A stretch of 64,000 nucleotides of DNA from a virus. Shown piece after piece: positions 5,755 to 39,655 of the stretch. The stretch lies in the IMG/VR virus record IMGVR_UViG_3300045988_115849, one strand, 5' to 3'. Both the position numbers and the translations under genes were made by a program. A model generated the notes under the pieces. The model saw only the letters and a list, made by a program, of their open reading frames with translations. It searched no databases and had not been told where the DNA came from. Each line of letters opens with the position of its first letter. Positions within the stretch are counted from its first letter, which is position 1.

Positions 5755-5781
5755 TAACAGATATTTCTGTTTAGATATTAA

Positions 5782-5837
5782 ACCGGTCATGAAAAATCAT
5801 GATCGCTAACCCTCAATAGTTACAGGGTAGAAAGGAG
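5782..5837 (+). promoter_or_regulatory. Conserved late-gene leader, copy 2, upstream of the major tail gene
   Basis: Hairpin CGGTCATGA (5784-5792) / TCATGATCG (5797-5805) with an AAAA loop. Positions 5802-5837 are identical to 1935-1970. Confidence 0.6.
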
Positions 5838-5844
5838 TTTGATT

Positions 5845-6330
5845 ATGAGTGGTGTAGCCGGAATAAGTACAGTCGGTGTAAAAGTTGGATATGCAGTAGA
5901 AACTACAGCAGGAACAAAACCGGCAAAATTTAAACAGCTTCATCGTATCAATGCCACGGATGATATTGGAATTGATACAGAGACAATCGATGCATCAGCA
6001 TTAGAAGATGAAGTTGATAAAGAGATTGCAGGTAGAGGGTCAACAGGTGGAACATTTAATGTCACTGTCAACTTAACGAACGAGACAGTTAAAGAATGGG
6101 AAACTTTGATCAGTGAATACAAAACAGGAAAAGCAGCAGGAAAAGCCGTATGGTATGAAGAATATTACCCGGCACTTGATAAGGCATATTTCACAAAGAT
6201 TGAGCCACCAGCACAGTTACCTAAGCCGGGGCTTGATCAGAATGGATTAGCAACCGTTGAAATGACATTGACAATCAACGAGTATGTCGGTCTTGATACC
6301 GCAGTAGAACCAGACGATACAGAAGTGTAA
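5845..6330 (+). CDS. Major tail (tube) protein
   Basis: ATG at 5845 lies 7 nt after SD AAAGGAG. N-terminal ..GISTVGVKVGYAVETTAGTKPAKFKQL..IDASALED.. resembles TP901-1/phi13-type major tail proteins. Followed by chaperones and the tape measure. Confidence 0.8.
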   Translation: MSGVAGISTVGVKVGYAVETTAGTKPAKFKQLHRINATDDIGIDTETIDASALEDEVDKEIAGRGSTGGTFNVTVNLTNETVKEWETLISEYKTGKAAGKAVWYEEYYPALDKAYFTKIEPPAQLPKPGLDQNGLATVEMTLTINEYVGLDTAVEPDDTEV

Positions 6331-6352
6331 TTTGAATGAATAGGAGGCAAAC

Positions 6353-6832
6353 ATGTATAAAGTATTAAAAATTGGTGGAAAAGATTATAAGCTTGAATAC
6401 ACAGTTGAAGCATCATTATATGACGATTGTGTATCAAGCGTAACTTCATTGATGGTAGGAATCAGTGAATCAGAAGATAAAAATGATATTAAGAAGCTCG
6501 TAAAAGAAATTTCCAATATTCCAAAGACAACATTAATAATCTTTTATGCAGGGCTTCTTGAAGCACATGGACCAGAGGGAGATGGAACAGTTTCTGATCT
6601 TAAAGATGCAAAATCTCTTATTAGAACATATCTTGAAGAACATAAAGATGATGAAGATGGAAATTTCTATGGGATCATGACTCTTTGTATTGAAAAGATG
6701 GGCGAAGATAATTTTTTCGATCTAATCGGTCTGAACAAGATGTTAGGGATCGAACCAGAACAGAAGAAAGAACCAAAGAAACCTCAGGATCACAAAAAGA
6801 AAACAGCGAAAGCAGAAGTTACAGAGAAATAA
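6353..6832 (+). CDS. Tail assembly chaperone (gpG-like)
   Basis: 159 aa, acidic with a Lys-rich tail. Canonical position before the tape measure. The downstream ORF is open in the -1 frame. Confidence 0.75.
   Translation: MYKVLKIGGKDYKLEYTVEASLYDDCVSSVTSLMVGISESEDKNDIKKLVKEISNIPKTTLIIFYAGLLEAHGPEGDGTVSDLKDAKSLIRTYLEEHKDDEDGNFYGIMTLCIEKMGEDNFFDLIGLNKMLGIEPEQKKEPKKPQDHKKKTAKAEVTEK
6712..6718 (+). promoter_or_regulatory. Candidate -1 programmed frameshift heptamer T_TTT_TTC
   Basis: In the zero frame of 6353..6832 the codons are AAT TTT TTC. The -1 frame has a TAA at 6709-6711 and is then open from 6712 through 7197. Confidence 0.55.
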
Positions 6833-6843
6833 TACTTGATACA

Positions 6844-7197
6844 TTGTTTCCTCAGGCTGTAAAAGCCGGAATGACAAAAGATGAATTTTTTCACTCCACT
6901 CCAAAAGAAATTGGTGTATACATAAATGCATACAAAGAACAGAAAGAATATGAATTGAAAAGTACAAATTATCAATCATGGTTAACAGGTTCTTATGTGT
7001 TGCAAGCGATTAATTGTGCTTTTTCTAAAAATGGGAATTATCCAGAAAACCCATTGCTAAAAGAAGAAAAAAGTATTGAATCAATTGAAAAGAGAAGTGG
7101 AAGAAGTAAAGAAGAAATGCAACAAGAATTAAGACTTATGGAACTCAGAGTTATGCAAGCAAATGCAAATATAGAAAAGATAGGGGCAGACGAATGA
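6844..7197 (+). CDS. Tail assembly chaperone frameshift extension (gpT-like), probably made only as a G-T fusion
   Basis: Lies in the -1 frame relative to 6353..6832, with no convincing own SD or ATG. ..MTKDEFFHSTPKEIGVYINAYKEQKEYE.. resembles T-segments of Firmicute siphophages. Confidence 0.7.
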   Translation: MFPQAVKAGMTKDEFFHSTPKEIGVYINAYKEQKEYELKSTNYQSWLTGSYVLQAINCAFSKNGNYPENPLLKEEKSIESIEKRSGRSKEEMQQELRLMELRVMQANANIEKIGADE

Positions 7198-7216
7198 TTC
7201 TGCCCTTTATTTTTTT
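7184..7216 (+). terminator. Intrinsic terminator after the chaperone genes
   Basis: Stem GGGCAGA (7184-7190) / TCTGCCC (7199-7205) followed by TTTATTTTTTT. Confidence 0.65.
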
Positions 7217-7218
7217 AT

Positions 7219-7266
7219 ACCGGCTGACCGTATGAGATCAGCCGCTGACCTTATTAGTTGGAGGTG
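7219..7266 (+). promoter_or_regulatory. Conserved late-gene leader, copy 3, upstream of the tape measure gene
   Basis: Hairpin CGGCTGA (7221-7227) / TCAGCCG (7238-7244). Then CTGACCTT..GAGGT (7248-7252 / 7261-7265), which overlaps SD GGAGGTG. Confidence 0.55.
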
Positions 7267-7273
7267 AATTAAA

Positions 7274-10200
7274 ATGCCAGATAGTACAATAGAAACACTC
7301 GATATACAAGTGAAAAGTTCGACTGCCAGAGCTGTTACAGCACTTGATAATTTGGCAAACAAATTATATGACGTGAGCAAAGCATTTAAGTCCGTAGATA
7401 CTGGAAGTATGAGAAACTATTCTCGTGAGATAGGCAGGGTTTCTTCGTCTTTAAAATCAATGAGTGGTATCAAAATCAATGTACCTAAATTATCTGGTCT
7501 TAGTAAACAGTTACAGTCATTAACAAATGTTAATTTTACCGCCTTAAATGCAAGTTCAAAACCATTAAAAGAATTGGCTTCTGGACTGAATGCTTTAAAA
7601 GGCGTTTCAGGTGTTACGATACCAAAGCTAGATTATAAAAATATCAATTCAGTTTCCAAAGCAATTGAAAAGATAGGAAAATTAGATACTGGAAATATTC
7701 AAAATTCTGTGAATGGAATATCAAAAGTATCTCATGCAATGTCAGTTTTAAATAACGTTGATTTTAGCGACAGCAAAATATCTTCTGTTATTAACTCTAT
7801 CAGAAAATTAATGGCAGTTGATACAAAAGGTTTTGATACGCAGATTTTTGACAGTATTTATAAGTCTGTGTCTAAACTTGGAAATCTTCCGGATGTTTCA
7901 TCAAGTATCAATAGACTTGTTGCATCATTAGCTAGATTAATCAGTTCTGGAAATAATACTGGTATAGTTGCAAGTAAGCTTCCGGCGGTAGGAAATGCAA
8001 TAAAGCAAACTGCAAATAAATTAGCATCTGTTAAAGGTGTTGAAGAATCAATAAATCAATTCATATCAGCGTTAGCGAGTCTATCTTCTGCCGGCAAAAA
8101 AGTAGAATTAAGTGCTAACGGACTACAAATAATGGCAAAAGAACTTTTGTCATTTTTCAATACCATGTCTAAAGCACCGGCTGTTAGTAAGAATACAGTA
8201 GAAATGACAAAGGCGTTGGCACAATTAGCAGCATCAGGCGGTAGAGTTAGTAGTGCTGTCAATACAATGAATACTTCTTTCGGAAAATTAAAGAACGGAT
8301 TTTCTGAATTAGCAAGCTTAGCATCCAGAGCTGGGTCTGCTGTAAGTAGTGGTATTGGTAAAATGGTAAATGCTATTCGAAATATTGGGTCAGCAAGTGG
8401 AAGTATTTCAACCGTAAATTTCAGCTTAAAAAATCTTATTCAAACAGCTATTGGATTTAAGGCGGTACAAGCATTTGGACAATTTACAAAGGATGCAATA
8501 ACGTTAGGATCGGATATAACAGAAGCAGAAAACGTAATTGATGTTTCTTTTGGTAAATTAAAATACAAAGCGTATGATTTTGCTTCAACAGCTTCAAAGC
8601 AGTTTGGAGTATCTGAGTTGGCAGCTAAAAGATACACAGGAACCATAATGGCAATGTTGAAGTCATCAGGTGTCGCCCAAAATGCAGCATCCGACATGTC
8701 AGTAGCATTAGCCGGATTAGCGGGTGATATTGCATCTTTTTATAATATAGATACTGATACAGCATTTTATAAAATCAGGGCAGGTATTTCTGGTGAGATT
8801 GAACCATTAAAGCAATTAGGTATTAACATGTCTGTTGCAAATATGAGTGCTTATGCTTTGGCAAACGGAATTACAAAGTCGTGGACTTCTATGACTCAGG
8901 CAGAACAGGCTACATTGAGATATAACTATTTAATGTCTGTAACAAAAGATGCACAGGGCGATTTTGCTCGTACTGCCGGTACTTGGGCAAACCAAGTACG
9001 TTTATTAAAATTAAACATTCAGTCATTATCAGCTGTTATGGGTCAAGGAATTATTGCAGCTGTACTTCCGGCAATTAAAGCATTAAACGCTTTAATGAGC
9101 AGGCTTATGCAAGCAGCTAATATGTTCAGAAACTTTATGTATGTTCTGATGGGAAAAAAGATAAAAGGAGCAACAAAAGGTGTTGTAAATGATCTTGGTG
9201 GAGTTGGCGATTCTGCTACTGATCTTTCAGGACTTGGAAGTGCCGGAAACGATGCATCTAAAGGGATGAACAAAGCATCTAAGGCAGCGAAAGAATTAAA
9301 GAAGACCTTATCCGTTCTGCCGTTTGATGAATTGAATCAGTTGAATGACAATAAGCAATCAAGCGATACTGGATCTGGAGGAGGTGCAGGTGGTTCTGGA
9401 AGTGGCGGTGGAGTCGGCGGTGGAATTGGCGGACTCGGTGATTTGAGTGGTCTTGAAGATGAAGATTATGAAACACCAATTAGTCATTGGGCTTCAAGAA
9501 TCAGAAAAGCATTTCTTGATAATAATTGGTATGGTGTTGGCCGTGAGATCGCAAATATGTTAAATGCCGGTCTGCAATTAGCCTATGATGCACTTGATTG
9601 GAAGAATGTTGGCCCTAAAATCACATCATTTACAACAAAATTTACTCAGGCAATCAATGGATTCCTTGATAATTTCGATTTTAAGTTATTAGGTAAAGTA
9701 GTTGGTGCAGGGATTACGGATGTAGTGAGAGCATTTAATCAAATTGCATCTCCTGATGGTGGTATAAACTTCAAAACTCTAGGTACTGGCATTGCAGAAA
9801 GTTTAAAAGGAATGATTCAGGAAATTCCATGGACAGAGTTAGGAAATGCACTCGGAAACTATTTTATGATCTCATGGAGAATCTTAAACGGATTCTTGAA
9901 TCAATTAGCAGCAACAGATAATACAGGCTTAACAGGATTTCAGCAAATCGGCGTTGCTCTTGGAAAAGCTGTAAATGGTATGTTCCAATCCATCGACTTC
10001 GCAACTATCGCAGATACATTTGCAGTAGGAATCAATGGAGTTTTTTCTATACTTGGAAAAATCAATGAAACTGTACATTGGTCTGATATTGCAGCAAATA
10101 TTTCTCACGGGATTAATACTTTTATCACCGGAGTTAACTGGGAAGAAAATGGACAAATATTAAGCACTTTTGTAAAAAATCTTCTTGGAGTATTTTCACA

Positions 10201-11887
10201 GGTAGCGCAAAATACAGACTGGGCAGGACTTGGAAAAGGCATTGGAACATTCCTAAGTAGTATTGATTGGAGTGGAATATTCGGAGAAGTATTTACAACA
10301 ATCAAAACAATATTAGGTGGACTTATCTCAGGATTAGGAACCACAATCGAAGGAAAGTTTATTATAGCTTTTGGTGCTATTAAACTTGTTACAGCAGTGG
10401 ATAAAATTGTAAGCCCTATACTTTCGGCGTTTGGTTTAATACCTAAAGAAGTAGATGGATCGTCTTCTTTATTAATCATAGCATTAAAGAAAATGGCAGG
10501 AGCTTTTTCAAAATCTACATTAGGTACTGCGATTGGAACGTATGTTTTGGATGCGATTAGCCTTTTAAAAGGCATTCCGGGGAAGATTACAACAGATGTT
10601 GCACCGAAGATCGCGGAAGTTATTTCAACAAAATTATTTCCAAAAGCGGTTTCATTTGCAGGTGGAATTGTATCATGGGTAACAGGTACGTTTGCACCAG
10701 CTGTATCAGCTGCATTTAGCAGTGTTCTTGGCGTGCTGTTCTCACCGATTGGATTAGCTATAGTTGGAGTAATCGTTGGTGGATTTTTAATATACAAAAA
10801 CTGGGGTGCAATATCTAAGTTTATCGGAAACGTAAAAGAGAATATTGTGAATGGATTTAACAGCGCCGGAGAATGGTTAAAGGAAAAAGGGAAAAACCTT
10901 ATTGAAGGCTTGCGCAATGGATGGGAAAGTGCAAAATCTGGTTTCGGAACAGCTGTTAGCACAATCGGCAAATTTATTAAAGAGAAAGTTGGAAACGCCG
11001 GTGAATGGTTGAAAGAAAAAGGGCAGGATGCAGTCGAAGGTATCCGTAGTGGATGGGAGTCTGTAAAAGAAAGCAAAGTCGGTCAGGCAGCCGCAGGTAT
11101 CGGAAATTACATCAAAGGTAAAGTCACTGGTGCTGAGAATTGGTTGGTTGAAAAAGGTAAGCAAGCTGTCAATGGGATGAAAAACGGTTGGGAGAACGTG
11201 AAGAACGGAAACTTCCAATCAACCGTAAAAGGATTAAAGAGTTTTACGGTAAATACATTAGCAAACACATCTCCGGCAGCATGGTTGGTTGCCAAAGGAG
11301 CAGAAGCTATGAAAGGTATGCTTTCTGGATTAAAAGGAGATAAATGGACAGATGCTAGAAACTGGTTGAAAAAGTTACCGAGCAATGTAAAAAATGCCGT
11401 TGGAGATATGTATAAAGTTGGGCAAAATATCATTAAGCAGTTTATTAATGGTTTTAAATCTTTACGTATTCCAACACCTCATATTTCTTGGGGAACAAAA
11501 GACTTTAATTTTGGTGGAATGAGCTTAAGCATACCAACTAAATTTAAAGTAGATTGGTATAAAAAAGGTGGATTATTTGATTCTGCATCCGTGATCGGTG
11601 TCGGTGAAGCCGGATCAGAAGCTGTATTACCACTTGAAAATCCAAAAACTATGAAGATGATCGCAGATAGTATCGTTGGTAATTCCGGCGGTATGGTTGA
11701 TGAAAGTATCATTGCTGATGCTGTAGAACGTGGAGTAGTTGTTGCTATGATGAACAATAGCGGAAATCAACCAGATATAAACTTATACGCAACATTATAT
11801 ACAGAAGATAACGAAGTTCTTGCAAGGTCTGTTGCAAAAGGACAAGCAAGAAATAATTACAGATTAAAACCATCAAGTGCATATTGA
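7274..11887 (+). CDS. Tape measure protein
   Basis: 1537 aa, helical and Ala/Ser/Gly-rich. Contains a Gly-rich linker (SGGGAGGSGSGGGVGGGIGG), hydrophobic segments and C-terminal tandem repeats. Canonical position. Confidence 0.95.
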   Translation: MPDSTIETLDIQVKSSTARAVTALDNLANKLYDVSKAFKSVDTGSMRNYSREIGRVSSSLKSMSGIKINVPKLSGLSKQLQSLTNVNFTALNASSKPLKELASGLNALKGVSGVTIPKLDYKNINSVSKAIEKIGKLDTGNIQNSVNGISKVSHAMSVLNNVDFSDSKISSVINSIRKLMAVDTKGFDTQIFDSIYKSVSKLGNLPDVSSSINRLVASLARLISSGNNTGIVASKLPAVGNAIKQTANKLASVKGVEESINQFISALASLSSAGKKVELSANGLQIMAKELLSFFNTMSKAPAVSKNTVEMTKALAQLAASGGRVSSAVNTMNTSFGKLKNGFSELASLASRAGSAVSSGIGKMVNAIRNIGSASGSISTVNFSLKNLIQTAIGFKAVQAFGQFTKDAITLGSDITEAENVIDVSFGKLKYKAYDFASTASKQFGVSELAAKRYTGTIMAMLKSSGVAQNAASDMSVALAGLAGDIASFYNIDTDTAFYKIRAGISGEIEPLKQLGINMSVANMSAYALANGITKSWTSMTQAEQATLRYNYLMSVTKDAQGDFARTAGTWANQVRLLKLNIQSLSAVMGQGIIAAVLPAIKALNALMSRLMQAANMFRNFMYVLMGKKIKGATKGVVNDLGGVGDSATDLSGLGSAGNDASKGMNKASKAAKELKKTLSVLPFDELNQLNDNKQSSDTGSGGGAGGSGSGGGVGGGIGGLGDLSGLEDEDYETPISHWASRIRKAFLDNNWYGVGREIANMLNAGLQLAYDALDWKNVGPKITSFTTKFTQAINGFLDNFDFKLLGKVVGAGITDVVRAFNQIASPDGGINFKTLGTGIAESLKGMIQEIPWTELGNALGNYFMISWRILNGFLNQLAATDNTGLTGFQQIGVALGKAVNGMFQSIDFATIADTFAVGINGVFSILGKINETVHWSDIAANISHGINTFITGVNWEENGQILSTFVKNLLGVFSQVAQNTDWAGLGKGIGTFLSSIDWSGIFGEVFTTIKTILGGLISGLGTTIEGKFIIAFGAIKLVTAVDKIVSPILSAFGLIPKEVDGSSSLLIIALKKMAGAFSKSTLGTAIGTYVLDAISLLKGIPGKITTDVAPKIAEVISTKLFPKAVSFAGGIVSWVTGTFAPAVSAAFSSVLGVLFSPIGLAIVGVIVGGFLIYKNWGAISKFIGNVKENIVNGFNSAGEWLKEKGKNLIEGLRNGWESAKSGFGTAVSTIGKFIKEKVGNAGEWLKEKGQDAVEGIRSGWESVKESKVGQAAAGIGNYIKGKVTGAENWLVEKGKQAVNGMKNGWENVKNGNFQSTVKGLKSFTVNTLANTSPAAWLVAKGAEAMKGMLSGLKGDKWTDARNWLKKLPSNVKNAVGDMYKVGQNIIKQFINGFKSLRIPTPHISWGTKDFNFGGMSLSIPTKFKVDWYKKGGLFDSASVIGVGEAGSEAVLPLENPKTMKMIADSIVGNSGGMVDESIIADAVERGVVVAMMNNSGNQPDINLYATLYTEDNEVLARSVAKGQARNNYRLKPSSAY

Positions 11888-11926
11888 TTTGTGTAAAACT
11901 TTATGCTATGATGAATTTAAGTTAAG

Positions 11927-11986
11927 AGACATACACAGGATGCAAAGGTCATGAAGACCACACAATCCTGTGTATGTCTTTTTTTA
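11927..11986 (+). terminator. Intrinsic terminator after the tape measure gene
   Basis: 14-bp stem AGACATACACAGGA (11927-11940) / TCCTGTGTATGTCT (11966-11979) followed by a T-run. Confidence 0.75.
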
Positions 11987-11997
11987 TTTTAATAATT

Positions 11998-12067
11998 ACA
12001 GCAAACTAGCCATCGTGTGCCGGCGAAAAGAACGTCTTTCCTCGTGTACGTTCCGTTTGCTGTTTTT
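11998..12067 (+). terminator. Second terminator-like long stem-loop, part of the island leader
   Basis: Outer stem ACAGCAAAC (11998-12006) / GTTTGCTGT (12055-12063) plus a T-run. Inner hairpin GAACGT (12030-12035) / ACGTTC (12048-12053). Confidence 0.5.
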
Positions 12068-12122
12068 ATATTTTAACATGAGGGTGCACACGTTAATGTT
12101 CAAATAACCACGAGGTGATAAT

Positions 12123-13151
12123 ATGAGTAAGAAATTAGATTTATTTTTCAAAAGTAACGTATTAGTAATCAATCCTGATCTTGCAAAAATGATTGGCTTA
12201 AATGAAGCAATCGTTCTGAATCAAATCTATTATTGGATTTCCGTAAATAAAAAACAGAACAGAAATTTCCACGATGGTAAATATTGGTGCTATAACTCTA
12301 TCAGAGAGTGGCAGGAAGAAAATTTTCCGTTTTGGTCACATAAGACCGTTGAGCGTATTTTTTATAGTTTACGCAACAAGGGTCTTGTTTTAGTGGGAAA
12401 TTATAACAATCGTCGTAATGGTTCTACATCTACAAAGTGGTATACAGTAAACGATGAGGTTTTAGAAGAAATCATTGATCAGATTTTAGACGAACCAGAA
12501 TCAGACCATACAGTTAGACAGAATAACTTTGAAAGCGACAACTTGACCGAAGCATTACCAGAGACTAACACAGATATTAACAATGCTTTATCTAACGATA
12601 AAGATTATGCTTTTTTATCAACAGAAGATAAAGATAATAATGATGTGTGTAGAGATAAAAAAGACTTCATGCCTATTTCTGGGAGAAATAAGGTCAAAAT
12701 CATAAAGAGAAAGGGAAATAAAACTACTCTTAGTCAGACAATTGAAGATAAAATCCATTTAGGTTTTAGAGTCAATCAAGAGTTTGACGATGATTTGTAT
12801 AACAATTCAAAAGATGAATGTGTAATCGGAGATATTGTTAAATACTTTTTCAAAAAATATCAGTTGGAGAAAGGAACAGACCATCCAATGATCTCTGACG
12901 AAAAATGCGTAGAGTTGGTTGAGAAGTTTTATTTTGTTCCTGAGAATATGCAAGACACAGAACTGGATTTTGATTTATACAAACTTATGATTGATAAATA
13001 CTTTGCAACAGAATATGGCAAAAATAGCGGATTCACAATTAATTACCAGATCATGCACTTTATGAATTATAAAATCCGTGAAAATCTATTCTACAAAGTT
13101 CAGGATGAATACTATGACAATGTTAAGAGTGATTATCCTGTTGAGATATAG
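12123..13151 (+). CDS. Winged-helix DNA-binding protein (replication-initiator/DnaD-like N-terminus), accessory
   Basis: 342 aa, SD GAGGTG. N-terminal ..AIVLNQIYYWISVNKK..GKYWCYNSIREWQEENFPFWSHKTVERIFYSLRNKGLV.. resembles wHTH domains of plasmid/phage replication organizers. The location inside the tail module is atypical. Confidence 0.55.
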   Translation: MSKKLDLFFKSNVLVINPDLAKMIGLNEAIVLNQIYYWISVNKKQNRNFHDGKYWCYNSIREWQEENFPFWSHKTVERIFYSLRNKGLVLVGNYNNRRNGSTSTKWYTVNDEVLEEIIDQILDEPESDHTVRQNNFESDNLTEALPETNTDINNALSNDKDYAFLSTEDKDNNDVCRDKKDFMPISGRNKVKIIKRKGNKTTLSQTIEDKIHLGFRVNQEFDDDLYNNSKDECVIGDIVKYFFKKYQLEKGTDHPMISDEKCVELVEKFYFVPENMQDTELDFDLYKLMIDKYFATEYGKNSGFTINYQIMHFMNYKIRENLFYKVQDEYYDNVKSDYPVEI

Positions 13152-13178
13152 AATCATCAAAGAAAAGGAGAAGAAAAG

Positions 13179-13733
13179 ATGAAAAATACAACATGGAAAA
13201 TACCATTGATTGTTCTAGCTGCGATTGTAGCAATAGCGTTAGTTGGCATATTTATGATTCACATACCACAGAATCATGCAAATTCGATGGAAGAACAGAT
13301 AATGGAATCAAAGGCGGCAATTAACGTTCAGGAAAAGAGAAGACAGGATTTAGTGTATAATCTGGCAGACAGTGTGAAATCTTACAACAAACATGAAGCC
13401 GAAACACTGAAAAATATTGTTAAAGAGAGAAGTTCAAATACCGGGAAAATTGAAAGTACAGGTACAGCGATTGCAGCAATAAAAGAATCTTATCCAGAAT
13501 TAAAAGCTGACAAGAATTATCAACGGCTTATGAAAGAATTAGCAGTTACAGAGAATAAGATTTCTGACGTAAGAGACAATTACAATCAGCAGATCAAAGA
13601 ATACAACAGATATGTCGTGAACTTTCCAGTGAACTTTTTCTTGAAACTGTTAGGATACAAACAGAAAACATATCAATATTTAAAATTTGAGGATGCAACA
13701 GAGACAGCACCGCAGAATTTATTTAGTGAGTAG
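13179..13733 (+). CDS. lemA: LemA family membrane protein
   Basis: 184 aa. N-terminal TM (IPLIVLAAIVAIALVGIFMI), then ..AAINVQEKRRQDLVYNLADSVKSYNKHEAETLKNIVKERS.., matching the LemA family signature. Confidence 0.85.
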   Translation: MKNTTWKIPLIVLAAIVAIALVGIFMIHIPQNHANSMEEQIMESKAAINVQEKRRQDLVYNLADSVKSYNKHEAETLKNIVKERSSNTGKIESTGTAIAAIKESYPELKADKNYQRLMKELAVTENKISDVRDNYNQQIKEYNRYVVNFPVNFFLKLLGYKQKTYQYLKFEDATETAPQNLFSE

Positions 13734-13736
13734 CCT

Positions 13737-14489
13737 ATGAGAAAATTCAAAGGATTTCAGTTTGATACTTTTGAAATAACTCCACGAGAGATTATAGCAA
13801 GCGTTGTTATTGTTGGATTAATGTTTCTGATTGGCTTTACTATCAGTGGGAAAATTGATAATTACATCATGGATCAGAACGAAGAATATAATCGTGCTGC
13901 AAAAATTGAAAGCAATGATCTTTTTCAGTATGGGATGGAAACAGACTTGGGCAATGCATTTGTTTATGGGAAGATAGAGCCGGTTGATACAGTTACATAC
14001 AAAGAAATTGGTGGTAAGTATTATTATATCAGGAAGATCAGAGAAGAATATCGCAGACATGAAAAAACCGAAAGAGTTAAAGACAGCAAAGGAAAAGTTC
14101 ATTACAAAAAGAAAGTCTGGTATTCATGGGATGATGTATGGAGAGAAAGTAGGACTTGTAAAAAGATTAAATTTGCAGGCAAGAAATTCAAGGAAGATAA
14201 GATTAACTTCATGGGAGGTCATTATCTAAAAAGAATTTATCATACTTCTCGTGTCAGGTATGAATACTATGGTATGGAAGCAAAGCCCGTTAAGGGAACT
14301 GTTTACACAAAGCTAAAAAATAATACTATGACAAGCTGTGATTTGAATAAGTCAAATCTAAAAGACACAGTTGAATCATACAAAACAAGTGGTGGAGTTT
14401 GTAAAATTCTGTTTTGGGTATTCTGGATCACTGGGACAGGGTTAGCGGTGTTCGGATTTTATTATTTGGATAATCATTGGTTAGAGTAG
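13737..14489 (+). CDS. Two-TM membrane protein with a central beta-rich domain (GIDE-like layout)
   Basis: 250 aa. TM near the N-terminus (IIASVVIVGLMFLIGFTISG) and near the C-terminus (ILFWVFWITGTGLAVFGFYYL). The basic central domain and LemA adjacency recall bacterial LemA/GIDE-domain gene pairs. Family membership is unverified. Confidence 0.5.
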   Translation: MRKFKGFQFDTFEITPREIIASVVIVGLMFLIGFTISGKIDNYIMDQNEEYNRAAKIESNDLFQYGMETDLGNAFVYGKIEPVDTVTYKEIGGKYYYIRKIREEYRRHEKTERVKDSKGKVHYKKKVWYSWDDVWRESRTCKKIKFAGKKFKEDKINFMGGHYLKRIYHTSRVRYEYYGMEAKPVKGTVYTKLKNNTMTSCDLNKSNLKDTVESYKTSGGVCKILFWVFWITGTGLAVFGFYYLDNHWLE

Positions 14490-14500
14490 GAGGATATGAT

Positions 14501-14716
14501 ATGATCAAAAAAATTAGAAAAAATAAATTAGCTGTATCAATTATTGCAGTAATCTTGGGAATGATCATAGTTTTTGCGGTCAATTTTGGAATTGTCAATT
14601 TTGTTTTGTGGTTGCTACAGTTTATTGTTGCAAAGCCTTTGGTTGTGACATTAAAAGGAAAAGCAGCAGCTACTGTATTGTTAACACTTGTTGTACATAT
14701 TTTTAGCCGCAAATAA
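14501..14716 (+). CDS. Small multi-TM membrane protein
   Basis: ATG at 14501 lies 7 nt after SD AGGAGG. 71 aa, almost entirely hydrophobic (..LAVSIIAVILGMIIVFAVNFGIVNFVLWLLQFIV..). Confidence 0.5.
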   Translation: MIKKIRKNKLAVSIIAVILGMIIVFAVNFGIVNFVLWLLQFIVAKPLVVTLKGKAAATVLLTLVVHIFSRK

Positions 14717-14770
14717 GACCACATGATACACAATAAGACCAAAGAGTATTGTATAATATAAAATTATAAA

Positions 14771-14798
14771 ACGTCTATCGAGAACGATAGGCGTTTTT
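14771..14798 (+). terminator. Intrinsic terminator closing the accessory island
   Basis: Stem ACGTCTATCG (14771-14780) / CGATAGGCGT (14785-14794) with one G-U pair, then TTTTT. Confidence 0.7.
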
Positions 14799-14806
14799 GC
14801 AGTTTA

Positions 14807-14858
14807 TACGGTCAATAAAAGCGAAAATTGATCGCTAACCTTAAATAGTTGGAGGTGG
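14807..14858 (+). promoter_or_regulatory. Conserved late-gene leader, copy 4, upstream of the distal tail genes
   Basis: Hairpin CGGTCAAT (14809-14816) / ATTGATCG (14827-14834). Then CTAACCTT..GAGGT (14838-14842 / 14852-14856), which overlaps SD GGAGGTGG. Confidence 0.55.
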
Positions 14859-14865
14859 ATTTTTT

Positions 14866-15228
14866 ATGGCAGAACACATGATAGAAGTTAATGGTAAAGT
14901 AATGCCATGTCCAGCTTCTTATGAATGGTCATTGCAAGATGTATCAGCATCGGATTCAGGAAGAACAGATGATGCATTGATGCATAAAAATAGAAAAGCA
15001 CAGAAAAGAAAGTTGGCATTGAAATGGAATGCTAAAACACCAGATGTTACTTCTGAAATATTGAAAGCCTTTAATCCAGAATATGTAAAAGTAAGATATT
15101 GGGACATGATGGCAAATAAATATCAGACAAGAACATTTTACACAGGGGACAGAAAAGCACCTGTGAAATGGTGGATAAAAAATAAAAAAATTATAGAGAG
15201 TGTTTCTTTTGACATAATAGAGAGGTAA
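14866..15228 (+). CDS. Small tail component in the distal tail protein (Dit) position
   Basis: 120 aa, strong SD, between the tape measure region and the tail tip gene. Positional call. Confidence 0.4.
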   Translation: MAEHMIEVNGKVMPCPASYEWSLQDVSASDSGRTDDALMHKNRKAQKRKLALKWNAKTPDVTSEILKAFNPEYVKVRYWDMMANKYQTRTFYTGDRKAPVKWWIKNKKIIESVSFDIIER

Positions 15229-15231
15229 ATT

Positions 15232-18200
15232 ATGATCAACGTATCAAGTGAATTTAGAGATAAATTAAATAACGGAAATTGTAATTATCTTAGTTACGCA
15301 GATATTACGTTGAAAGACGGGACAACTCTAAATTTGACCAATGATGATATATGGAATGGCGGAGTTACGATTGAAGATGCAGTTTCAAGTGGAACTTTTG
15401 AAGTTGGATCAGTTGTTATCAATCAATGTACGATTGTGATAAATAATATCTATGATAAGTTTACAAAATATGACTTTAAAGAAGCTGTAGTGAGGGCGCA
15501 GTTAGGCACTGATTTGAACGAAACGGAATTTGATATAGATGCAGACGATGAAACGGAATCTTCGTATACACCACGAATTGAGAAAATAAAAAAAGGCGTA
15601 TATACAGTAGATGATACAAAATATAATGGATCAATTATAACACTTACATGCATAGATAATATGGGTAAGTTTGACAGGGCATATTCTGAAAGTAAGTTGG
15701 AGTATCCGGCAACATTAAAGACGATCGTTATGGATGCATGTGATATATGCGGAGTGACATTAAATACACCAGATTTTTCACATGGTGACTATATTATCAA
15801 TACAAGACCGACTGATGCTGCGGTAACATTTCGTGAAGTGATTGCTTGGTGCGGTCAAATCTCAGGAAATTACTGTAGGTGCAATGTCAATGGGCAGTTG
15901 GAATTAAAATGGTTCAATCAGAGTCTTTTAGAAAAAACACTTATAAATTTGATTCCTGACAGTTTGTTTGATGGTGGTATAACAAGTTGGAAAGCTGTAG
16001 ATGCAAAAATAGGAACGGACACAATTGAATATAAAGAAATGCTTTCAATCATCCCAAATGCAGGAAAAACAGGCTATGCAGTAGAAGCAGTTCCGAATCT
16101 TAAGTTGGCTACTAATTATACAATTGGTGGTCAATTTTTTATGCAGTATCCAGAAGATAACGATGTAGCAATCTTGAAGATTTTAAATGGAACAAAAGAA
16201 ATTGCAAGCAAAGAAATAGAATTAAATGACGGTTGGACTGGGTTCAAATTTGATTTTGTTTCAACATCACAGAATGTTTCTATCAACATTGGATTCAAAG
16301 GGGACAACACATTATATGTGTATAAACCTTATTTAGAAGAAAAAATACCAGATGAAATCTACCAATTTAATGGAGTATATAACTCTGATGTAGCTACAGA
16401 TGATGTAGTCATTACTGGCGTAAGAGTGATGGAAAAGAAAGATACTGAAAATAGCAGTGATGATTCTGATACTTCTGAGGGATCAGAAAACACGGCTTCT
16501 AGTGATGATGGATATATAAATTATCAGACTGGATCAGATGGATACCTTATTTCTATTGAAAATAATGAACTGATTAAAGATGGTGCCGGTCAAACGGTAT
16601 CTGGATTTTTGGGAGAACAGTTAATAGGATTTGCATTTCGGAAAGCTACGATCACACATATTAGTGATCCGACACTAGAAGCCGGAGATGTTGCAATTCT
16701 TACTGATTCAAAATTCGATCGTTACAAAATATTAGTATCATCAACAAAATTTAATACAAATAATTCTCAGACAACAAGTTCTAATGCTGAGAGTACAGAA
16801 AAAAATAGTGCTGTAAGATATTCCGCAGCGACCAAAAATTATGTGGAATACAGGAAGCAGATTGTACAAGAAAAAACAGACAGGCAAAAAGCATTAGATG
16901 AATTGAAAAACAGATTGAATAATTCTTCCGGAATTTATACAACAATCGAAAAAGATTCGGCAGGCGGACAGATTTTTTATCTGCACAATAAACCACAGCT
17001 AAAAGATTCCAATATGATCTGGAAAATGACAGCGGAAGCATGGGGCGTTTCTACAGATGGTGGGAAAACATACAATGCAGGAATGACGGTTGATGGAGAT
17101 ACAATTGTTAGATATTTAAAGGCTACAGGTCTTACAGCGGATGTGATCACGTCTGGAAGAATACAAGTAAAAGATTCTTTTGGAAATACGATTTTTTTGG
17201 TTGATATGGATACCGGCAAGGTTGTTATCAGTGGAGACAACATTTCTATTGGCGGAAAGATATTAACCGAAGAAATTGAGGATATAAAAAAGGCAGGAAA
17301 TCTAATCCTTAAGATGGATAACGAATACCAAGGTGTTAGTGTAGATCACGAGGGAAATTATGTGAAATTTCCAAAAGTGACGTTTACAGTACAGACGTTT
17401 TGGGGGCAGACAGATGTAACAAAAGATACTATCTTTTCATTTGCAAAATCTGACGGCGTAAACGGTACGTTTGACTCAAAGCAAAATATTTATACCGTCA
17501 CATCACTTGCAACAGACACTGGATGGATAGACGTTACAGCAAAGTATGTTACATACACCGCAAAGAAACGATTTAATATTGCTAAAGTTCGCGATGGTAG
17601 TCCGGGGAGAGTATATCTGTTGGAAACATCATCTTCTATATTGAAAAAATCACAGAATGGAGATGTAATACCGGACGAAATCACATTCAAAGCGTCATAT
17701 CGTGACGGTACAGAGTCAGCGAAAACAGAATATCAAGGAATCTTTGTGATAGAAGAGTCGAAAGATGGCAAGATATGGACCAAAACGTATGAAAGTTCGG
17801 AGAATGAAAGCACAATTACATTTCCGTTTTATAACTGTTTAGAAGTGACAACAGGGAATTATTTAAAAACAAATGCAGGGAGCATGATAGTTGTCAGTAA
17901 GAGGAACATGAAAGACATCATCTATGTACGATGCAGACTTTACACACCAGACAAAAAGATAATACTTGACGAAGAATCAATACCGTTGGTTATGGATGTA
18001 GAAGCATTGACTCATGAACAGATATTTAATCTGTTGACAAACGATGGAGCAATTAAAGGTATCTACAAAGAGGGAGACCAGTTGTATATATCCTTTACAT
18101 ACGCAAAAGGTGGAGAACTTGCACTTGGTGGAAAGAATAACGGCAATGGTGTCTTTAAGATGTATGACGAAAACAATAACGTTATCGGCACATGGGACAA

Positions 18201-18678
18201 GGACGGTATTAATGCCACAAAAGGTACATTTAGTGGAGAACTTAAGGCTGCGACTGGTACGTTTACAGGAGAACTAAACGGAGTCACTGGAACATTTAGT
18301 GGAGAGCTTAAAGCCGCATCTGGAACATTCAGTGGAATATGCTCGAATGTGGATAATGTATATACATCTAGTTTAAATCACGGTTGGGTCGAAATACTGA
18401 GGAATGGAGAAAGGACGGCATTTATGTCTGGTCGTGCAGTATACCAAAACAAATATGGGATGGCACTGCATGGGAAAAGCATTATCGTTCTTGGTTCTCC
18501 GGTTCTTGGAGTAACAGACTACAACGAAGATGGTGGAACAAATGAAGTTAGTATTGGTCAAACAGTTGAGATACCAATTGTTAAAAGCATATCAGCTACT
18601 TCAAACGGAATAATAAAATCAATGGTAAGTGGAAAGCTTATCTTTACAAAAGGGCTACTGACAAATTATTCAAAGTAA
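15232..18678 (+). CDS. Tail tip / tail-associated protein (prophage tail endopeptidase-type N-terminus)
   Basis: 1148 aa. N-terminal ..VSSEFRDKLNNGN..YADITLKDGTTLNLTNDDIW.. resembles the N-terminal region of phage minor structural/Tal proteins. C-terminal 11-aa GTFSGEL repeats. Confidence 0.75.
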   Translation: MINVSSEFRDKLNNGNCNYLSYADITLKDGTTLNLTNDDIWNGGVTIEDAVSSGTFEVGSVVINQCTIVINNIYDKFTKYDFKEAVVRAQLGTDLNETEFDIDADDETESSYTPRIEKIKKGVYTVDDTKYNGSIITLTCIDNMGKFDRAYSESKLEYPATLKTIVMDACDICGVTLNTPDFSHGDYIINTRPTDAAVTFREVIAWCGQISGNYCRCNVNGQLELKWFNQSLLEKTLINLIPDSLFDGGITSWKAVDAKIGTDTIEYKEMLSIIPNAGKTGYAVEAVPNLKLATNYTIGGQFFMQYPEDNDVAILKILNGTKEIASKEIELNDGWTGFKFDFVSTSQNVSINIGFKGDNTLYVYKPYLEEKIPDEIYQFNGVYNSDVATDDVVITGVRVMEKKDTENSSDDSDTSEGSENTASSDDGYINYQTGSDGYLISIENNELIKDGAGQTVSGFLGEQLIGFAFRKATITHISDPTLEAGDVAILTDSKFDRYKILVSSTKFNTNNSQTTSSNAESTEKNSAVRYSAATKNYVEYRKQIVQEKTDRQKALDELKNRLNNSSGIYTTIEKDSAGGQIFYLHNKPQLKDSNMIWKMTAEAWGVSTDGGKTYNAGMTVDGDTIVRYLKATGLTADVITSGRIQVKDSFGNTIFLVDMDTGKVVISGDNISIGGKILTEEIEDIKKAGNLILKMDNEYQGVSVDHEGNYVKFPKVTFTVQTFWGQTDVTKDTIFSFAKSDGVNGTFDSKQNIYTVTSLATDTGWIDVTAKYVTYTAKKRFNIAKVRDGSPGRVYLLETSSSILKKSQNGDVIPDEITFKASYRDGTESAKTEYQGIFVIEESKDGKIWTKTYESSENESTITFPFYNCLEVTTGNYLKTNAGSMIVVSKRNMKDIIYVRCRLYTPDKKIILDEESIPLVMDVEALTHEQIFNLLTNDGAIKGIYKEGDQLYISFTYAKGGELALGGKNNGNGVFKMYDENNNVIGTWDKDGINATKGTFSGELKAATGTFTGELNGVTGTFSGELKAASGTFSGICSNVDNVYTSSLNHGWVEILRNGERTAFMSGRAVYQNKYGMALHGKSIIVLGSPVLGVTDYNEDGGTNEVSIGQTVEIPIVKSISATSNGIIKSMVSGKLIFTKGLLTNYSK

Positions 18679-18691
18679 TGTAGGGGGATAT

Positions 18692-18979
18692 ATGAACATA
18701 GATATGACATTTTCCGTACTGTCGGAAAATCTTAGCACAAAAATAAATACAATCATCACAGAAGCAATGCAGAATGGTGCCACACTGGACGTTGTGGAAA
18801 TGTCCTTGATTAAGGTACATAACGATGTGCTGATGCAGAAAAACAGGCTGTATGCAGGGATGATAGAGCAACCTACTGAAAAAGAAATTGAGTTTAAAGA
18901 CCAGAAAGCATTGAAAGAGTTTTTGGAGAAATCTGGTGTAGAAGTAAAAGAGGTGGATGCAAATGGCAAAGATAAATGA
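18692..18979 (+). CDS. Hypothetical protein between tail tip and fibre
   Basis: 95 aa, SD GGGGGA. Overlaps the start of the fibre gene. Confidence 0.5.
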   Translation: MNIDMTFSVLSENLSTKINTIITEAMQNGATLDVVEMSLIKVHNDVLMQKNRLYAGMIEQPTEKEIEFKDQKALKEFLEKSGVEVKEVDANGKDK

Positions 18980-21900
18980 TTTACCGATATTGCCTAATCC
19001 GACAGAAGATATGTATTGTCTGGTTGGGAAAGATGATCTAAAGAAAGTACCATGGTCTGCGATTATGGGGCAGATTGGTTCCCCTTATGTTGCAACATCA
19101 ATATCACAAATGACAGATAAGACAAGGGTGTATGTCTATTATGGAGAAGAAAGTGGCTATATAAAAGGTAACTGGTACTATTGGAACGCCAATACATCAG
19201 CTTGGACTTCTGGGAAAAAGTATAACAGCGAGGGTATAGTTACAGATGAAACGCTTGCAGTACCTGGAAAGGCTGCGGATGCCAAAGCTACAGGCGATAA
19301 GATTAAAAAAACAAAAGAAGATTTAGAAAATGCATTAAAAGACATTGATGTTACAACAGACACAACCTTGACCAAAACTGGAAAAGCTGCGGATGCCAAA
19401 GCCACAGGAGATGCCATAAAAAAAGTAAAGGAAGATGTGGCGAACATTGATGTTGCTACAGATACAACACTTGCAGTATCTGGAAAGGCTGCGGATGCCA
19501 AAGCTACAGGCGATAAGATTAAAAAAATATCAGACGATTTAAAAAATACCATGCCATATTATCCAATCGCAACAGAAGAACAGGCAAGGGCAGGAGTAGA
19601 CGATACCGTTATGATGACTCCATTAAAAGTTGCTATGGCTTGCGAAGAATTTGGTGGCTCTGGTGGTGGCGGTGGAAACGTTAATGTCGCAACATTAAAA
19701 AGTAGCTTTACTGGTGGAAATTATGCGTATGGTTCGCCAATAGATATCCGCTATCGTTTTGCATCCCCAGTATCCGGAGATGGAACATTACATGTTATGG
19801 TGGATTCTGTCGAGACAGTTACAGAAACAGTACCGCAGGGAACAAACAGAGTCACACTAAACGATTTAAATAAAGGTAACCACACGATCACAATGTATGT
19901 TGTAGATGCGTCAGAAACATTTACAGATACACTTAGCTTTAGTGTCAGAGTTGGAACACTGGATATTACATCTACATTTGATGATAGTACAGACTTTAAC
20001 ATCGTAAATGTTATAAAAGTACCAATCACGATCGACACGATTTCTATTGACCCGATATATCTGGTACAGACGATTGATGGAGTAGAAACAAGACTTTCTG
20101 CACAAAACGGATACAACGTTATAACTCTGCCTACAATGAGTGCAGGGGCACATAAAGTATTGTTCCATGCGGAATCTGGTTCCTATAAATCACAGACATT
20201 AACATATAACATCATTATTGAAGATGCCGATAATCTGACGTTAATAACTGATTTTGACACAAAAACAATACAGTATAAAGATATGTTAGAAATCCCATAT
20301 CGAGTATCCATGAAAGGGCAGACAAAATTTACAGCTCAGTATTTTGTTGACGATACAGTTGTAAAAGAGGTTGAAATTCCATCTGGTACTAATGTTTGGG
20401 CCACAAGCACATTAGATATTGGTGCACATACTTTGAAAATCTTAGTCACAACAAAAGATGGAAGTAAATCTGCATACATTGAAGAAAACGTGATTGTGCA
20501 GGCAAGAGATTATACGCCAATGGAACCAGTAAAAGATGCTTCTTTGCTTTGTTGGTTTGATGCAACAGGAAGAACAAATCAAGATGTGGGTAAAGAAACA
20601 TGGACCGATAAATCTGGAAAAGGCGTTGTCGCAACACTGCACAACTTCAACTACAACACAAACGGTTGGGAAAACAATGCTCTGAAATGTAACGGACAGG
20701 CTTATGTAGAGATTGACTTAGAAGCGTTAGCTGATAATGCCCCATACGGAATGACAGTAGATATCCGATATAACACAAGAGATGTAGGTAACCAAGACGC
20801 GTGTGTATTAGAGATGAGAGGTAATGATACTTATAGTAAAGGTTTTGCAATAGATACTGAGTATATGTATATGAACTCTGCATCATCTCAGTTAAAGAGT
20901 ACGGTAGAACAAGATAGTATCTCAAAAGCAACTTTTGTTATTGATCGTGACAATAAGATTGCAAAAATCTATAACAACGGTGTTCTGACAGAAACATTCT
21001 TGATGCAGGACAGCGAAAATTTCACAAACAACACAAAGATATTCTTAGGAGCAAAACTTGAAACAGTCGATTCAAAATGGGTTCCTAATGTGTTCGGAAA
21101 CTGTGAGATTTATAGTTTTCGTGTGTATGCAAGAGCATTGGACAGTGAAGAAATTGTTAAAAACTTTGTAGCTGATATTCCAGATATGGACGAACAGCAA
21201 GCGAAATATCTTCTTAACTACGAAAACGCTATGCCTACGATGTATTTCTACGGAGATACATCAGCAATGACAAAAGAAAATAAAGTACCGCTTAGGATTA
21301 AATATATATCTGGTAATGCAGATGAATATGGAGCTTCTTTTGATTTAGAGAATTGTCAAGTTGGATGGCAGGGAACATCTTCCTTGCAGTACGCTGTAAA
21401 GAATTACAAAATCAAGTTAAAGAATCCAGATGGAAGTAAATATAAGTATAGTCCGTTCAAGAATGGGATCTTGGAAGATACATTCTGTCTGAAAGCGGAT
21501 TATATGGAAAGCTCGCACGCAAACAATACAGGTATGGCTAAATTTATCAATGACGAGTTATACGATACAAAAGTACCACCTCAGCAAACAAATAGTAAGG
21601 TCCGTACAGCGATCAACGGATTTCCAATCCAGTTATATATTGCAAAGGATTCTGCATCAACACCCGTGTATATGGGCGTATTTAATTTCAATCTTGATAA
21701 AGGATGTAACAAGTCATTTGGATTGGATAACGAGGTTACTGGACAGGAAAACTGTATGTCTTTTGAGGTATCATCAAACTCTGACACATCAGCAGGTGCC
21801 TTTAAAAATGATACAGATGAATCTTTACGTACAGACTTTGAATTGAGATATCCAGACGAAGATGATTGCACATCTGAACAGATTACTGAGAAGTACAACG

Positions 21901-28382: not shown

Positions 28383-28484
28383 TGTATCACTCCTTAATTC
28401 TAAAAAATAGGTATAAAAATAACAGCTACGCAATTCCTAAAATTGGAATTTGCATAAAACGCAAAATGGTTAAAATTTTACGAC

Positions 28485-29278: not shown

Positions 29279-29328
29279 AATACCCCTCCTTTTTACGGTG
29301 TATAACAAACAAATGACAAATAAAAAAA

Positions 29329-39639: not shown

Positions 39640-39655
39640 AAGGAGAATAACAAAC

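Follow-up and report, generated by a model that had tools for sequence, protein, structure and literature searches.

LemA proteins (PF04011) make up a very common family of membrane proteins, to which, to our knowledge, no molecular function has been assigned. In cellular genomes, lemA genes often adjoin genes for a membrane protease (htpX) or for TPM-domain proteins, suggesting a role in envelope homeostasis. Known superinfection exclusion proteins, including Imm and Sp of phage T4, the lactococcal Sie2009, Ltp of Streptococcus thermophilus, and gp15 of HK97, are small membrane proteins or lipoproteins that are expressed early or from the prophage and that are highly variable. Here, we analyzed a 64,000-nucleotide stretch of viral DNA (IMG/VR record IMGVR_UViG_3300045988_115849), referred to as the window, with a focus on positions 11,888 to 14,865. 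In this region, a LemA gene and an adjacent gene of the protein family PHROG 3886 (hereafter p3886) are located together with a winged helix-turn-helix (wHTH) gene and a gene for a small hydrophobic protein, in between the gene of the tape measure protein (TMP) and the gene in the distal tail (Dit) position. The comparisons described below indicate that the region is very probably an accessory island of two units, in which LemA and p3886 form an obligate pair.

The window is the genome of a temperate siphophage of gut Bacillota, the structural genes of which span approximately 1 to 25 kb. A megablast search of positions 7000 to 19000 against 50,697 phage records gave zero matches, leaving this phage without a close sequenced-phage relative. 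For the comparisons, 15 IMG/VR phages with a Dit protein at least 98% identical to that of the window are considered close relatives, and phages with a Dit protein that is 51 to 63% identical are considered distant relatives.

Gene content of the tape measure-Dit junction

Four open reading frames (ORFs) on the plus strand occupy positions 12123 to 14716, downstream of the TMP gene, which ends at 11887, and ahead of the DUF6711 gene that takes the Dit position and starts at 14866. They are close-packed, with intergenic gaps of 27, 3, and 11 nt, and their coordinates agree with those of a preliminary description of this DNA (Table 1). All four genes are found at the same site in 15 of the 15 close relatives. 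In several other relatives (L020, L022, L023, and L029 to L032), the TMP gene abuts the Dit gene, with one small ORF in between in L020. L130 carries a wHTH homologue alone at this position, and the junction of L021 holds a wHTH homologue, a 110-amino-acid (aa) ORF, and a secreted Big_2 (Ig-domain) protein, between terminators. In L026 (IMGVR_UViG_3300024326_000027, positions 5706 to 7855), the junction contains genes for a Zn-ribbon protein, a YjcQ protein (E = 2.9e-23), a SocA/Panacea antitoxin-domain protein (E = 1.5e-21), and a transmembrane (TM) protein, which is probably a Panacea-type toxin-antitoxin or defense set. The presence/absence comparison proposed in the preliminary description thus shows that the island is kept in the close relatives and absent or replaced in the distant ones. 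Since the junction is either empty or filled with differing cargo in distant relatives, it can be regarded as an accessory-gene hotspot of this lineage.

The block had previously been read as a single moron cassette. This holds in that its genes are accessory, lie at a variable junction, and are bounded by terminators. However, the cassette falls apart into two units that are distributed separately, as the wHTH gene recurs at the junction independently of the LemA pair, and the two are unlinked outside this phage group. Both flanking terminators were recovered. T1, downstream of the TMP gene, has a fold z-score of -5.5 (positions 11915 to 12125, relative to shuffled controls), and T2, downstream of the fourth ORF, has a z-score of -3.9. 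A simple terminator scanner, which also lists T2 on the minus strand, failed to call T1 owing to the length of the T1 loop. T1 is not specific to the island: in L022 and L020, a hairpin and T run directly follow the TMP gene despite the absence of an island, and a T1-type terminator therefore belongs to the junction rather than to the island. The GC content of the island (0.33 to 0.34, versus 0.34 to 0.375 in the flanks) is not deviant.

The location in between tail genes could also mean that the island proteins form part of the tail or virion, or assist in assembly, and are co-expressed late with the tail genes, and RefSeq and PHROG (PHROG 1383) indeed label LemA homologues as "virion structural protein." Nevertheless, this is very improbable. 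Relatives with homologous TMP, Dit, and Tal proteins lack the island proteins, the pair elsewhere lies far from structural genes, the proteins are membrane-anchored, and the strong terminator T1 divides the TMP gene from the island genes. Moreover, the label is found in the RefSeq records NC_029009 and NC_048087, whereas the GenBank originals (KP339049 and MH880817) state "LemA family protein." The label thus looks like annotation drift and transfer rather than the result of proteomics, and was not counted as evidence.

The best sigma-70-like match in positions 11860 to 12125 is the promoter-like site at 11884 to 11912, which precedes T1. A similar arrangement, TTGATT-17-TGtTATTAT followed by a long hairpin and a T run, is also located upstream of the wHTH homologues of L021 and L130, despite the divergence of these sequences. 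In all three phages, the promoter-like sequence, TTGATT-17-TGnTAT(G/T)AT, overlaps the TMP stop codon. This element thus keeps its position despite divergence, and it is restricted to junctions with a downstream wHTH gene. It may represent an attenuator, a small RNA of approximately 65 to 100 nt, or two separate signals. A weak, putative second promoter-like site (12045 to 12072) lies within a "CTGTTTTTATA" block that is invariant in a three-way alignment of the window, L021, and L130. In the latter two phages, a better -35 sequence (TTGATA/TTGATG) is located 17 nt before the site in this block. The claim that the block is autonomous from late transcription is unproven, as no convincing sigma-70 promoter was found between T1 and the first gene. 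Positions 11500 to 15300 are without a match in Rfam at E ≤ 1; the sequence preceding the wHTH gene and the late leader discussed below are accordingly not described RNAs.

The wHTH protein comprises an N-terminal winged-helix domain (residues 1 to 123, approximately), a disordered linker (residues 126 to 201), and a helical C-terminal domain. It matches DnaD-like and replication-initiator PHROGs through its N-terminal part only (phrog_6493, E = 3.3e-32; phrog_11233, E = 1.5e-27). When the N-terminal domain of an AlphaFold2 (AF2) model was queried with Foldseek, the RepA_N winged helices 4PQL, 4PT7, and 5KBJ were retrieved with probabilities of 0.99 to 1.0 but E values of only 1e-2 to 5e-2, the best being 4PQL and 5KBJ (probability of 1.0, E value of only 1e-2). 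The C-terminal domain was unmatched, and the generic winged helix alone accounted for the Foldseek matches. In addition, 19 scanned members of the family have no Pfam match, and their C-terminal domain is neither DnaB_2/DnaD (PF07261) nor Phg_2220_C (PF09524). The protein is 98 to 99% conserved among the 15 close relatives, and its full-length homologues at the same junction include that of L130, with 35% identity, and that of L021. In L132, the homologous gene is found close to the endolysin gene, next to one that encodes a protein with a Peptidase_S24 domain (CI/LexA type), and in L133 it is located in the early region before the terminase gene.

A role as the replication initiator of this phage was ruled out, as the genome encodes a complete, unrelated pair of DnaD-like and DnaC-like proteins at 43195 to 44707, and the wHTH protein shows no sequence similarity to the organizer of that pair. 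It is probably a regulator or interference factor. Alternatively, the wHTH gene and its upstream region could be what is left of, or the central part of, a small mobile or replicative element that targets the TMP-Dit junction and brings in cargo, with the LemA pair as passenger DNA lacking a site-specific role. The similarity of the N-terminal domain to RepA_N/DnaD-N, the promoter-like and hairpin sequences kept in three diverged phages, and the differing cargo downstream of the wHTH gene in the window and L021 are in line with this idea. On the other hand, no recombinase, repeat boundary, iteron array, or helicase-loader partner was found at the island, local repeats are absent, and the C-terminal domain is not of the DnaD/DnaB_2 or Phg_2220_C type. 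Homologues are moreover found at ordinary positions of the early and lysogeny type. We consider such an element quite improbable.

The LemA-p3886 pair and its allelic variation

The second gene of the island encodes a clear LemA family protein, as stated earlier. It matches PF04011 with an E value of 1.6e-30 (106.3 bits, versus a gathering threshold of 26.2; model positions 3 to 146 of 149) and the structure PDB 2ETD with an E value of 1.6e-25 by sequence. A partial NCBIfam match (E = 3.3e-17) was obtained to MamQ, a magnetosome membrane protein. An N-terminal TM helix is located at approximately residues 8 to 26, the most hydrophobic 19-residue stretch starting at residue 8 with a mean hydropathy of 2.97. 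Across 42 LemA homologues, the net charge is +2.45 before this helix and -1.0 in the 15 residues after it. According to the positive-inside rule, this pattern places the helical-bundle domain outside the membrane, and the protein is probably oriented N-in/C-out. In agreement with the preliminary description, no phage role of LemA was found in the literature searched, which contained no study of a phage LemA. One paper confuses LemA with the unrelated Pseudomonas LemA/GacS sensor kinase.

The adjacent p3886 protein matches PHROG 3886 with an E value of 1.7e-67 (residues 7 to 250 on positions 1 to 263 of the 263-position profile) and has no match in Pfam, NCBIfam, PADLOC, or the PDB sequences. 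Its AF2 model (pLDDT of 69) shows a helix at residues 16 to 52, strands at residues 73 to 204, and a second helix at residues 208 to 249. The beta-rich middle is strongly basic (39 K/R versus 26 D/E), and the family alignment reveals two invariant, membrane-adjacent end motifs, EITxREI(L/I)AS and FYY(L/I)DNxWLE. The charge count weakly favors an N-in topology with the middle domain outside. A HMMER scan of 1.84 billion representative proteins (E ≤ 1e-3) yielded 960 clusters at 50% identity, and most of the best 150 of these 960 clusters are 226 to 294 aa long. At the structural level, Foldseek returned no significant match in the PDB (best E value of 9e-3, TM-score of <0.3), and the BFVD matches are uncharacterized viral proteins of similar length. 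Those from giant viruses, with TM-scores of 0.35 to 0.47, may reflect a shared general architecture.

The protein had been called a GIDE-like two-TM protein. The architecture, with a beta-rich middle in between two TM helices, is reproduced by the AF2 model. However, the GIDE profile PF12483 matched neither p3886 nor 29 homologues, even at E ≤ 5. Given that none of these 30 family members matches the profile, and that p3886 has no RING domain and no significant PDB fold match, an assignment to GIDE is not supported. Similarly, of the LemA, GIDE, TPM, DUF2207, DnaD, and HTH_36 models proposed for the four proteins, LemA was matched, and nothing else in Pfam.

The fourth gene encodes a hydrophobic protein with two to three hydrophobic segments and no family match in the Pfam, PHROG, and NCBIfam scans. 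Homologues with 42 to 50% identity are encoded 0.4 to 3.3 kb downstream of the LemA pair in gut phage contigs of 85 to 166 kb. It accompanies the pair only in these contigs and in the present phage group, and is absent beside the pair elsewhere, where the downstream ORFs encode unrelated soluble proteins. A general role as a fixed third component was therefore ruled out, and the link of this protein to the pair is loose.

LemA is rare in sequenced phages (38 of 50,697 records) and adjoins p3886 in every phage locus examined. Twenty-two Enterococcus myophage records, most of approximately 150 kb, carry the pair. In EFDG1 (Schiekvirus), the one Enterococcus record examined, the pair (AJP61388 and AJP61387) is located beside genes for ribonucleotide reductase (RNR), NrdH, dNK, and NadR. 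The gut phage contigs of 85 to 166 kb have the pair between DNA ligase and RNR genes, and the adjacent pair is also present in Lysinibacillus phage LC76P1. In two human-gut phage contigs, the pair lies just upstream of long ORFs in the expected terminase and portal positions, an assignment made by position for these unscanned ORFs. In Latilactobacillus TMW 1.46 P1 and Lactococcus PLg-TB25, LemA and its partner are the last early genes before those for RinA, HNH, and terminase (PMC5431838), and the partners in these two phages are remote p3886 homologues (hhalign probabilities of 99.3% and 98.8%, respectively). The pair is thus usually positioned in an early or replication cluster, not at a moron site.

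The partnership extends to bacterial genomes. Among genomes sampled at one per species (GTDB), 63 p3886 loci were identified, mostly in Lachnospiraceae and other Clostridia. The homologues are 37 to 53% identical over their full length, and two fragmentary matches score higher. LemA lies directly upstream of p3886 in approximately 60 of the 63 loci, the exceptions being truncated contigs, and the flanking genes match phage families of helicases, methyltransferases, HNH proteins, and terminases. These phage-type neighbors mark p3886 as a phage and prophage family rather than as a general partner of LemA, and the earlier view of the pair as a common bacterial one is not borne out for p3886. Judged from these gene neighborhoods, LemA and p3886 form an obligate pair that is carried by temperate as well as virulent phages of Bacillota. 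The two genes were already catalogued as PHROG 1383 and PHROG 3886; what is new here is their obligate, phage-specific pairing and the domain swapping described next.

Allelic variation was assessed in 7 kb of aligned sequence from the window and the 15 close relatives. Nucleotide diversity is 0.01 to 0.03 in the wHTH and Dit genes, 0.10 in the part encoding the soluble domain of LemA, and 0.15 to 0.18 in the middle of p3886. LemA and the middle of p3886 are consequently the most variable DNA of the alignment, with the TMP C terminus (approximately 0.10) as the only comparable block. Among near-identical phages, LemA alleles show identities of approximately 82%, 93%, and 97 to 100%. Synonymous divergence (dS) reaches 0.37 to 0.51 in the variable LemA and p3886 alleles, compared to 0.05 to 0.09 in the flanks, implying that the alleles are old and were imported by recombination. 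The ratio of nonsynonymous to synonymous divergence (dN/dS) is 0.12 to 0.17 overall, 0.04 to 0.17 for whole genes, 0.07 for the N-terminal part of p3886, 0.58 for its middle, and 0.75 for the LemA TM segment. Positive selection was rejected as the source of the diversity, since pairwise dN/dS is below 1 everywhere and the differences come from old imported alleles rather than from recent adaptive substitutions.

The exchange takes place at the level of domains. The middle domain of p3886 covers approximately residues 93 to 215, and the alleles of this protein include ones at 100% and 74%. The p3886 allele of a sibling phage (P0004) is 100% and 91% identical to that of the window in the TM ends and only 53 to 60% identical in the middle. 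The reverse is seen for the allele of a large phage (P0002, from a 157-kb contig), with 85 to 92% identity in the middle and only 47 to 60% in the TM ends. In addition, LemA and p3886 alleles reassort, and most combinations are seen among the relatives. As the alleles are freely combined, the variable parts of the two proteins need not match each other.

Candidate roles of the pair

By analogy with described exclusion proteins, we tentatively suggest that the pair may act in superinfection exclusion at the membrane. This role is preferred because the pair is dispensable, occurs in virulent and temperate phages, is located in early or uncoupled units, and is highly variable. The earlier suggestion of a membrane-acting superinfection exclusion, abortive infection, or host-conversion system likewise stands as a reasonable hypothesis. 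In the proposed mechanism, LemA and p3886 would both be cytoplasmic membrane proteins whose soluble parts, the helical bundle of LemA and the beta domain of p3886, face outward, and would form a membrane complex through the conserved TM segments and end motifs. The pair would alter the membrane or the entry site, such that the DNA of later-arriving phages is blocked. Specificity would be determined by the exchangeable p3886 middle together with the ectodomain of LemA, with the variable domains contacting varying targets, such as incoming phages, the host surface, or entry components. In most carriers, the module would be made early in lytic infection. In the phage studied here, expression from the prophage may come in addition, given that the module is uncoupled from the tail operon by T1. 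Prophage expression, which the preliminary description had suggested for the block, cannot be the general logic of the pair, since strictly lytic phages conserve the pair as well and it usually lies in early or replication clusters. The explanation as a whole, in which a two-unit, moron-type hotspot island carries a LemA-p3886 exclusion module, is plausible, although we put it forward tentatively.

Several observations weigh against this explanation. The general PHROG and PADLOC scans revealed no likeness to known exclusion or defense proteins: none of the PHROG or Pfam matches of the four proteins carries a superinfection exclusion annotation, and the sole hit in PADLOC-DB v2 was a chance-level Cas5 (E = 0.0094). 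The topology of p3886 is ambiguous on charge counts, and its model is of moderate quality. The best promoter-like site lies upstream of T1 rather than between T1 and the first gene, and overall dN/dS is below 1. Frequent recombination in this phage group may alone explain the mosaic alleles. The TMP C-terminal block at 10839 to 11588 is also allelic (79 to 81% versus 99% amino acid identity, diversity of approximately 0.10, dS of 0.42), and recombination-hot regions are thus not limited to the LemA pair. Finally, most carriers have the pair in early or replication clusters, where genes for ligase, RNR, and helicase are its neighbors, and a function in the lytic cycle of the carrier itself would account for this location equally well.

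In such a lytic-cycle role, the main rival of exclusion, the pair would manage the envelope by remodeling or stabilizing the host membrane, and its position in the tail region of the present phage would be incidental. Possible tasks are delaying premature lysis or depolarization, countering membrane-acting abortive infection (Abi) effectors, or anchoring replication or assembly. The conservation of the pair across a genus of strictly lytic Enterococcus myophages points in this direction, as does its location among ligase, RNR, NadR, and helicase genes in the 85- to 166-kb gut contigs and, in temperate phages, usually at the end of the early operon before RinA, HNH, and terminase. The membership of MamQ in the LemA family and the htpX and TPM neighbors of cellular lemA genes are also compatible with envelope management. 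However, the pair is dispensable, being absent from relatives with homologous tails, and LemA occurs in few phage records. Housekeeping would also not predict the swapping of exposed domains between alleles. Taken together, a lytic-cycle role seems somewhat unlikely. If it is true, the island represents an ordinary mosaic rearrangement.

It is also conceivable that the island is a prophage defense or Abi system in which the membrane proteins are effectors that kill or arrest the infected cell upon arrival of a second phage and the wHTH protein is the sensor or regulator. Many defense islands similarly combine multiple membrane proteins within one unit flanked by terminators, cargo of the toxin-antitoxin type occupies this junction in L026, and the wHTH homologue of L132 is located beside a Peptidase_S24-domain protein of the CI/LexA type. 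Yet the PADLOC scan was blank, linkage of the LemA pair to a wHTH gene is not seen outside this phage group, and the pair is common in virulent phages, where Abi makes little sense. Such a system is accordingly considered improbable.

If exclusion or entry control is the function of the pair, it would constitute a new family in the competition between gut phages and offer a first mechanistic handle on the large and obscure LemA family. The broadest form of this proposal appears rather unlikely, namely, that LemA-p3886 is an unrecognized, widespread two-component membrane system of Bacillota phages that governs passage across the host membrane during and after infection, by exclusion or entry control, and whose outward specificity domain is swapped between unrelated phages of the same host. 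The pair spans phages of Lachnospiraceae, Enterococcus, Lactococcus, Latilactobacillus, and Lysinibacillus, with domain-level swaps between co-resident phages. Since homologous pairs occur in phages of cultivable hosts, including the Enterococcus Schiekvirus genus and the Latilactobacillus and Lactococcus prophages, the function can be tested. In addition, knowing that cargo collects at the TMP-Dit junction of this lineage aids the mining of such phages for accessory and defense genes. The finding is therefore a solid lead for experiments rather than a demonstrated new system.

Phage context and comparison with described systems

As stated before, a repeated late leader follows the block. Its repeat, ATCGCTAACCnTnAATAGTT, is non-random, with three matches compared to 0.03 expected by chance. 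The copies precede the gene of the major head protein (copy at 1935), that of the major tail protein (5802), and the gene in the Dit position (14831); the last of these had been designated "late-leader copy 4," whereas three copies were found, not four. At 5784 and 14809, CGGTCAnnAAAA stands approximately 20 nt upstream of the leader core. The leader is about 40 to 60 nt in length and is missing in the more distant relatives L021 and L130. The copy at 14809 to 14855, the only one searched, has no match in Rfam. The leader could serve as a late promoter that is recognized by a factor of the phage, or it could act at the RNA level.

Table 1. Coordinates of the island, its signals, and other features of the phage genome (positions refer to the window unless another genome is named)
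Feature	Position	Strand	Remarks
wHTH gene	12123-13151	+	342 aa
LemA gene	13179-13733	+	184 aa
p3886 gene (PHROG-3886 protein)	13737-14489	+	250 aa
Small hydrophobic protein gene	14501-14716	+	71 aa; GGAGG ribosome-binding site 8 nt upstream
Terminator T1	11924-11986	+	15-18 bp stem (11924-11982), inner mini-hairpin in the loop, then T run
Terminator T2	14768-14798		13-bp stem, AGAA loop, TTTTT; A run on the other side
Promoter-like site	11884-11912	+	TTGATT-17 nt-TGcTATGAT; overlaps TMP stop, reads into T1
Promoter-like and hairpin element	11884-11986; L021, 5057-5190; L130, 6692-6790		
Weak second promoter-like site	12045-12072	+	TGTACG-16-TATATT, inside the "CTGTTTTTATA" block
Leader copies	1934-1970; 5801-5837; 14830-14855		Upstream of major head, major tail, and Dit-position genes
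Third leader copy	14809-14855	+	CGGTCAnnAAAA...GATCGCTAACCTTAAATAGTTGGAGG; directly upstream of the DUF6711 gene
Major head gene	starts 1977		
Major tail gene	starts 5839		
TMP gene	7274-11887		Stop TGA at 11885-11887
DUF6711 gene in Dit position	14866-15228		
Tail protein (Tal)	15232-18678		
Fiber protein	18957-25181		2074 aa
Endolysin	26097		
Integrase	27204-28433	-	ImmA-like protease also in this module
DnaD-like replisome organizer and DnaC-like loader	43195-44707		Organizer at 43195-43968

Beyond the island, the C-terminal part of Tal (18223 to 18336) contains in-frame tandem 33-nt repeats that encode GTFSGELKAA-like units, and the 2074-aa fiber carries in-frame repeats of approximately 100 to 114 nt with "GKAADAKATGD(K/A)IKK" units (19241 to 19547). 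In the lysogeny module, a gene on the minus strand (28595 to 29308) between the integrase and the ImmA-like protease encodes a 237-aa Ig-like-domain protein, the PHROG matches of which are Ig-domain structural and tail proteins. Its placement in this module, on the strand of the lysogeny genes, makes it a candidate surface protein for lysogenic conversion. The early module, downstream of the lysogeny genes, encodes anti-repressors and SbcC-like, RecT-like, DnaD-like, and DnaC-like proteins. It also includes a gene for a PAPS-reductase-like protein (38359 to 39639; phrog_424, E = 5e-30) and an overlapping gene for a phrog_1048 protein (39584 to 40321), which may be a DNA-modification or anti-restriction pair. 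A 56-nt direct repeat with 77% identity (49910 to 49965 and 51788 to 51843) occurs in opposite coding contexts 1.9 kb apart and may mark paralogous small Cys-rich genes.

Compared with described systems, p3886 shares the TM-beta-TM layout of GIDE/MUL1 (PF12483), a likeness in architecture only that is not diagnostic, and one phage p3886 homologue is annotated as "RING-type E3 ubiquitin transferase." Unlike GIDE/MUL1, p3886 has no RING domain, profile match, or significant PDB fold match. The wHTH protein, which had been described as replication-organizer-like, resembles RepA_N and DnaD-like organizers in its N-terminal domain by profile (E = 3.3e-32) and weakly by fold. However, its C-terminal domain differs from theirs, and its gene lies outside the replication module and not beside a helicase loader.

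The described exclusion proteins (Imm/Sp, Sie2009, Ltp, and gp15) share no sequence or profile similarity with the pair, which has an organization of two or three components. The resemblance is in kind only: the pair is likewise small, membrane-anchored, non-essential, and variable, and is carried by temperate and virulent phages alike. The 184-aa LemA protein is a true member of the family of PF04011, 2ETD, and MamQ, including its N-terminal TM helix. Whereas cellular LemA proteins have TPM or HtpX neighbors, the phage versions are always paired with the phage- and prophage-only p3886.

The island itself compares most directly with morons and prophage cargo hotspots. It differs from morons in that no clear promoter of its own was found and in that its base composition is not deviant. 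Because the LemA pair occurs mostly in early or replication clusters and also in virulent phages, it is not a classical lysogenic-conversion gene. In other respects the agreement is close, as the non-structural genes of the island are flanked by terminators on both sides within a syntenic late operon and are present, absent, or replaced at the same junction among relatives. As a kind, the island thus belongs to a known type, the moron-type island at a variable late-operon junction.

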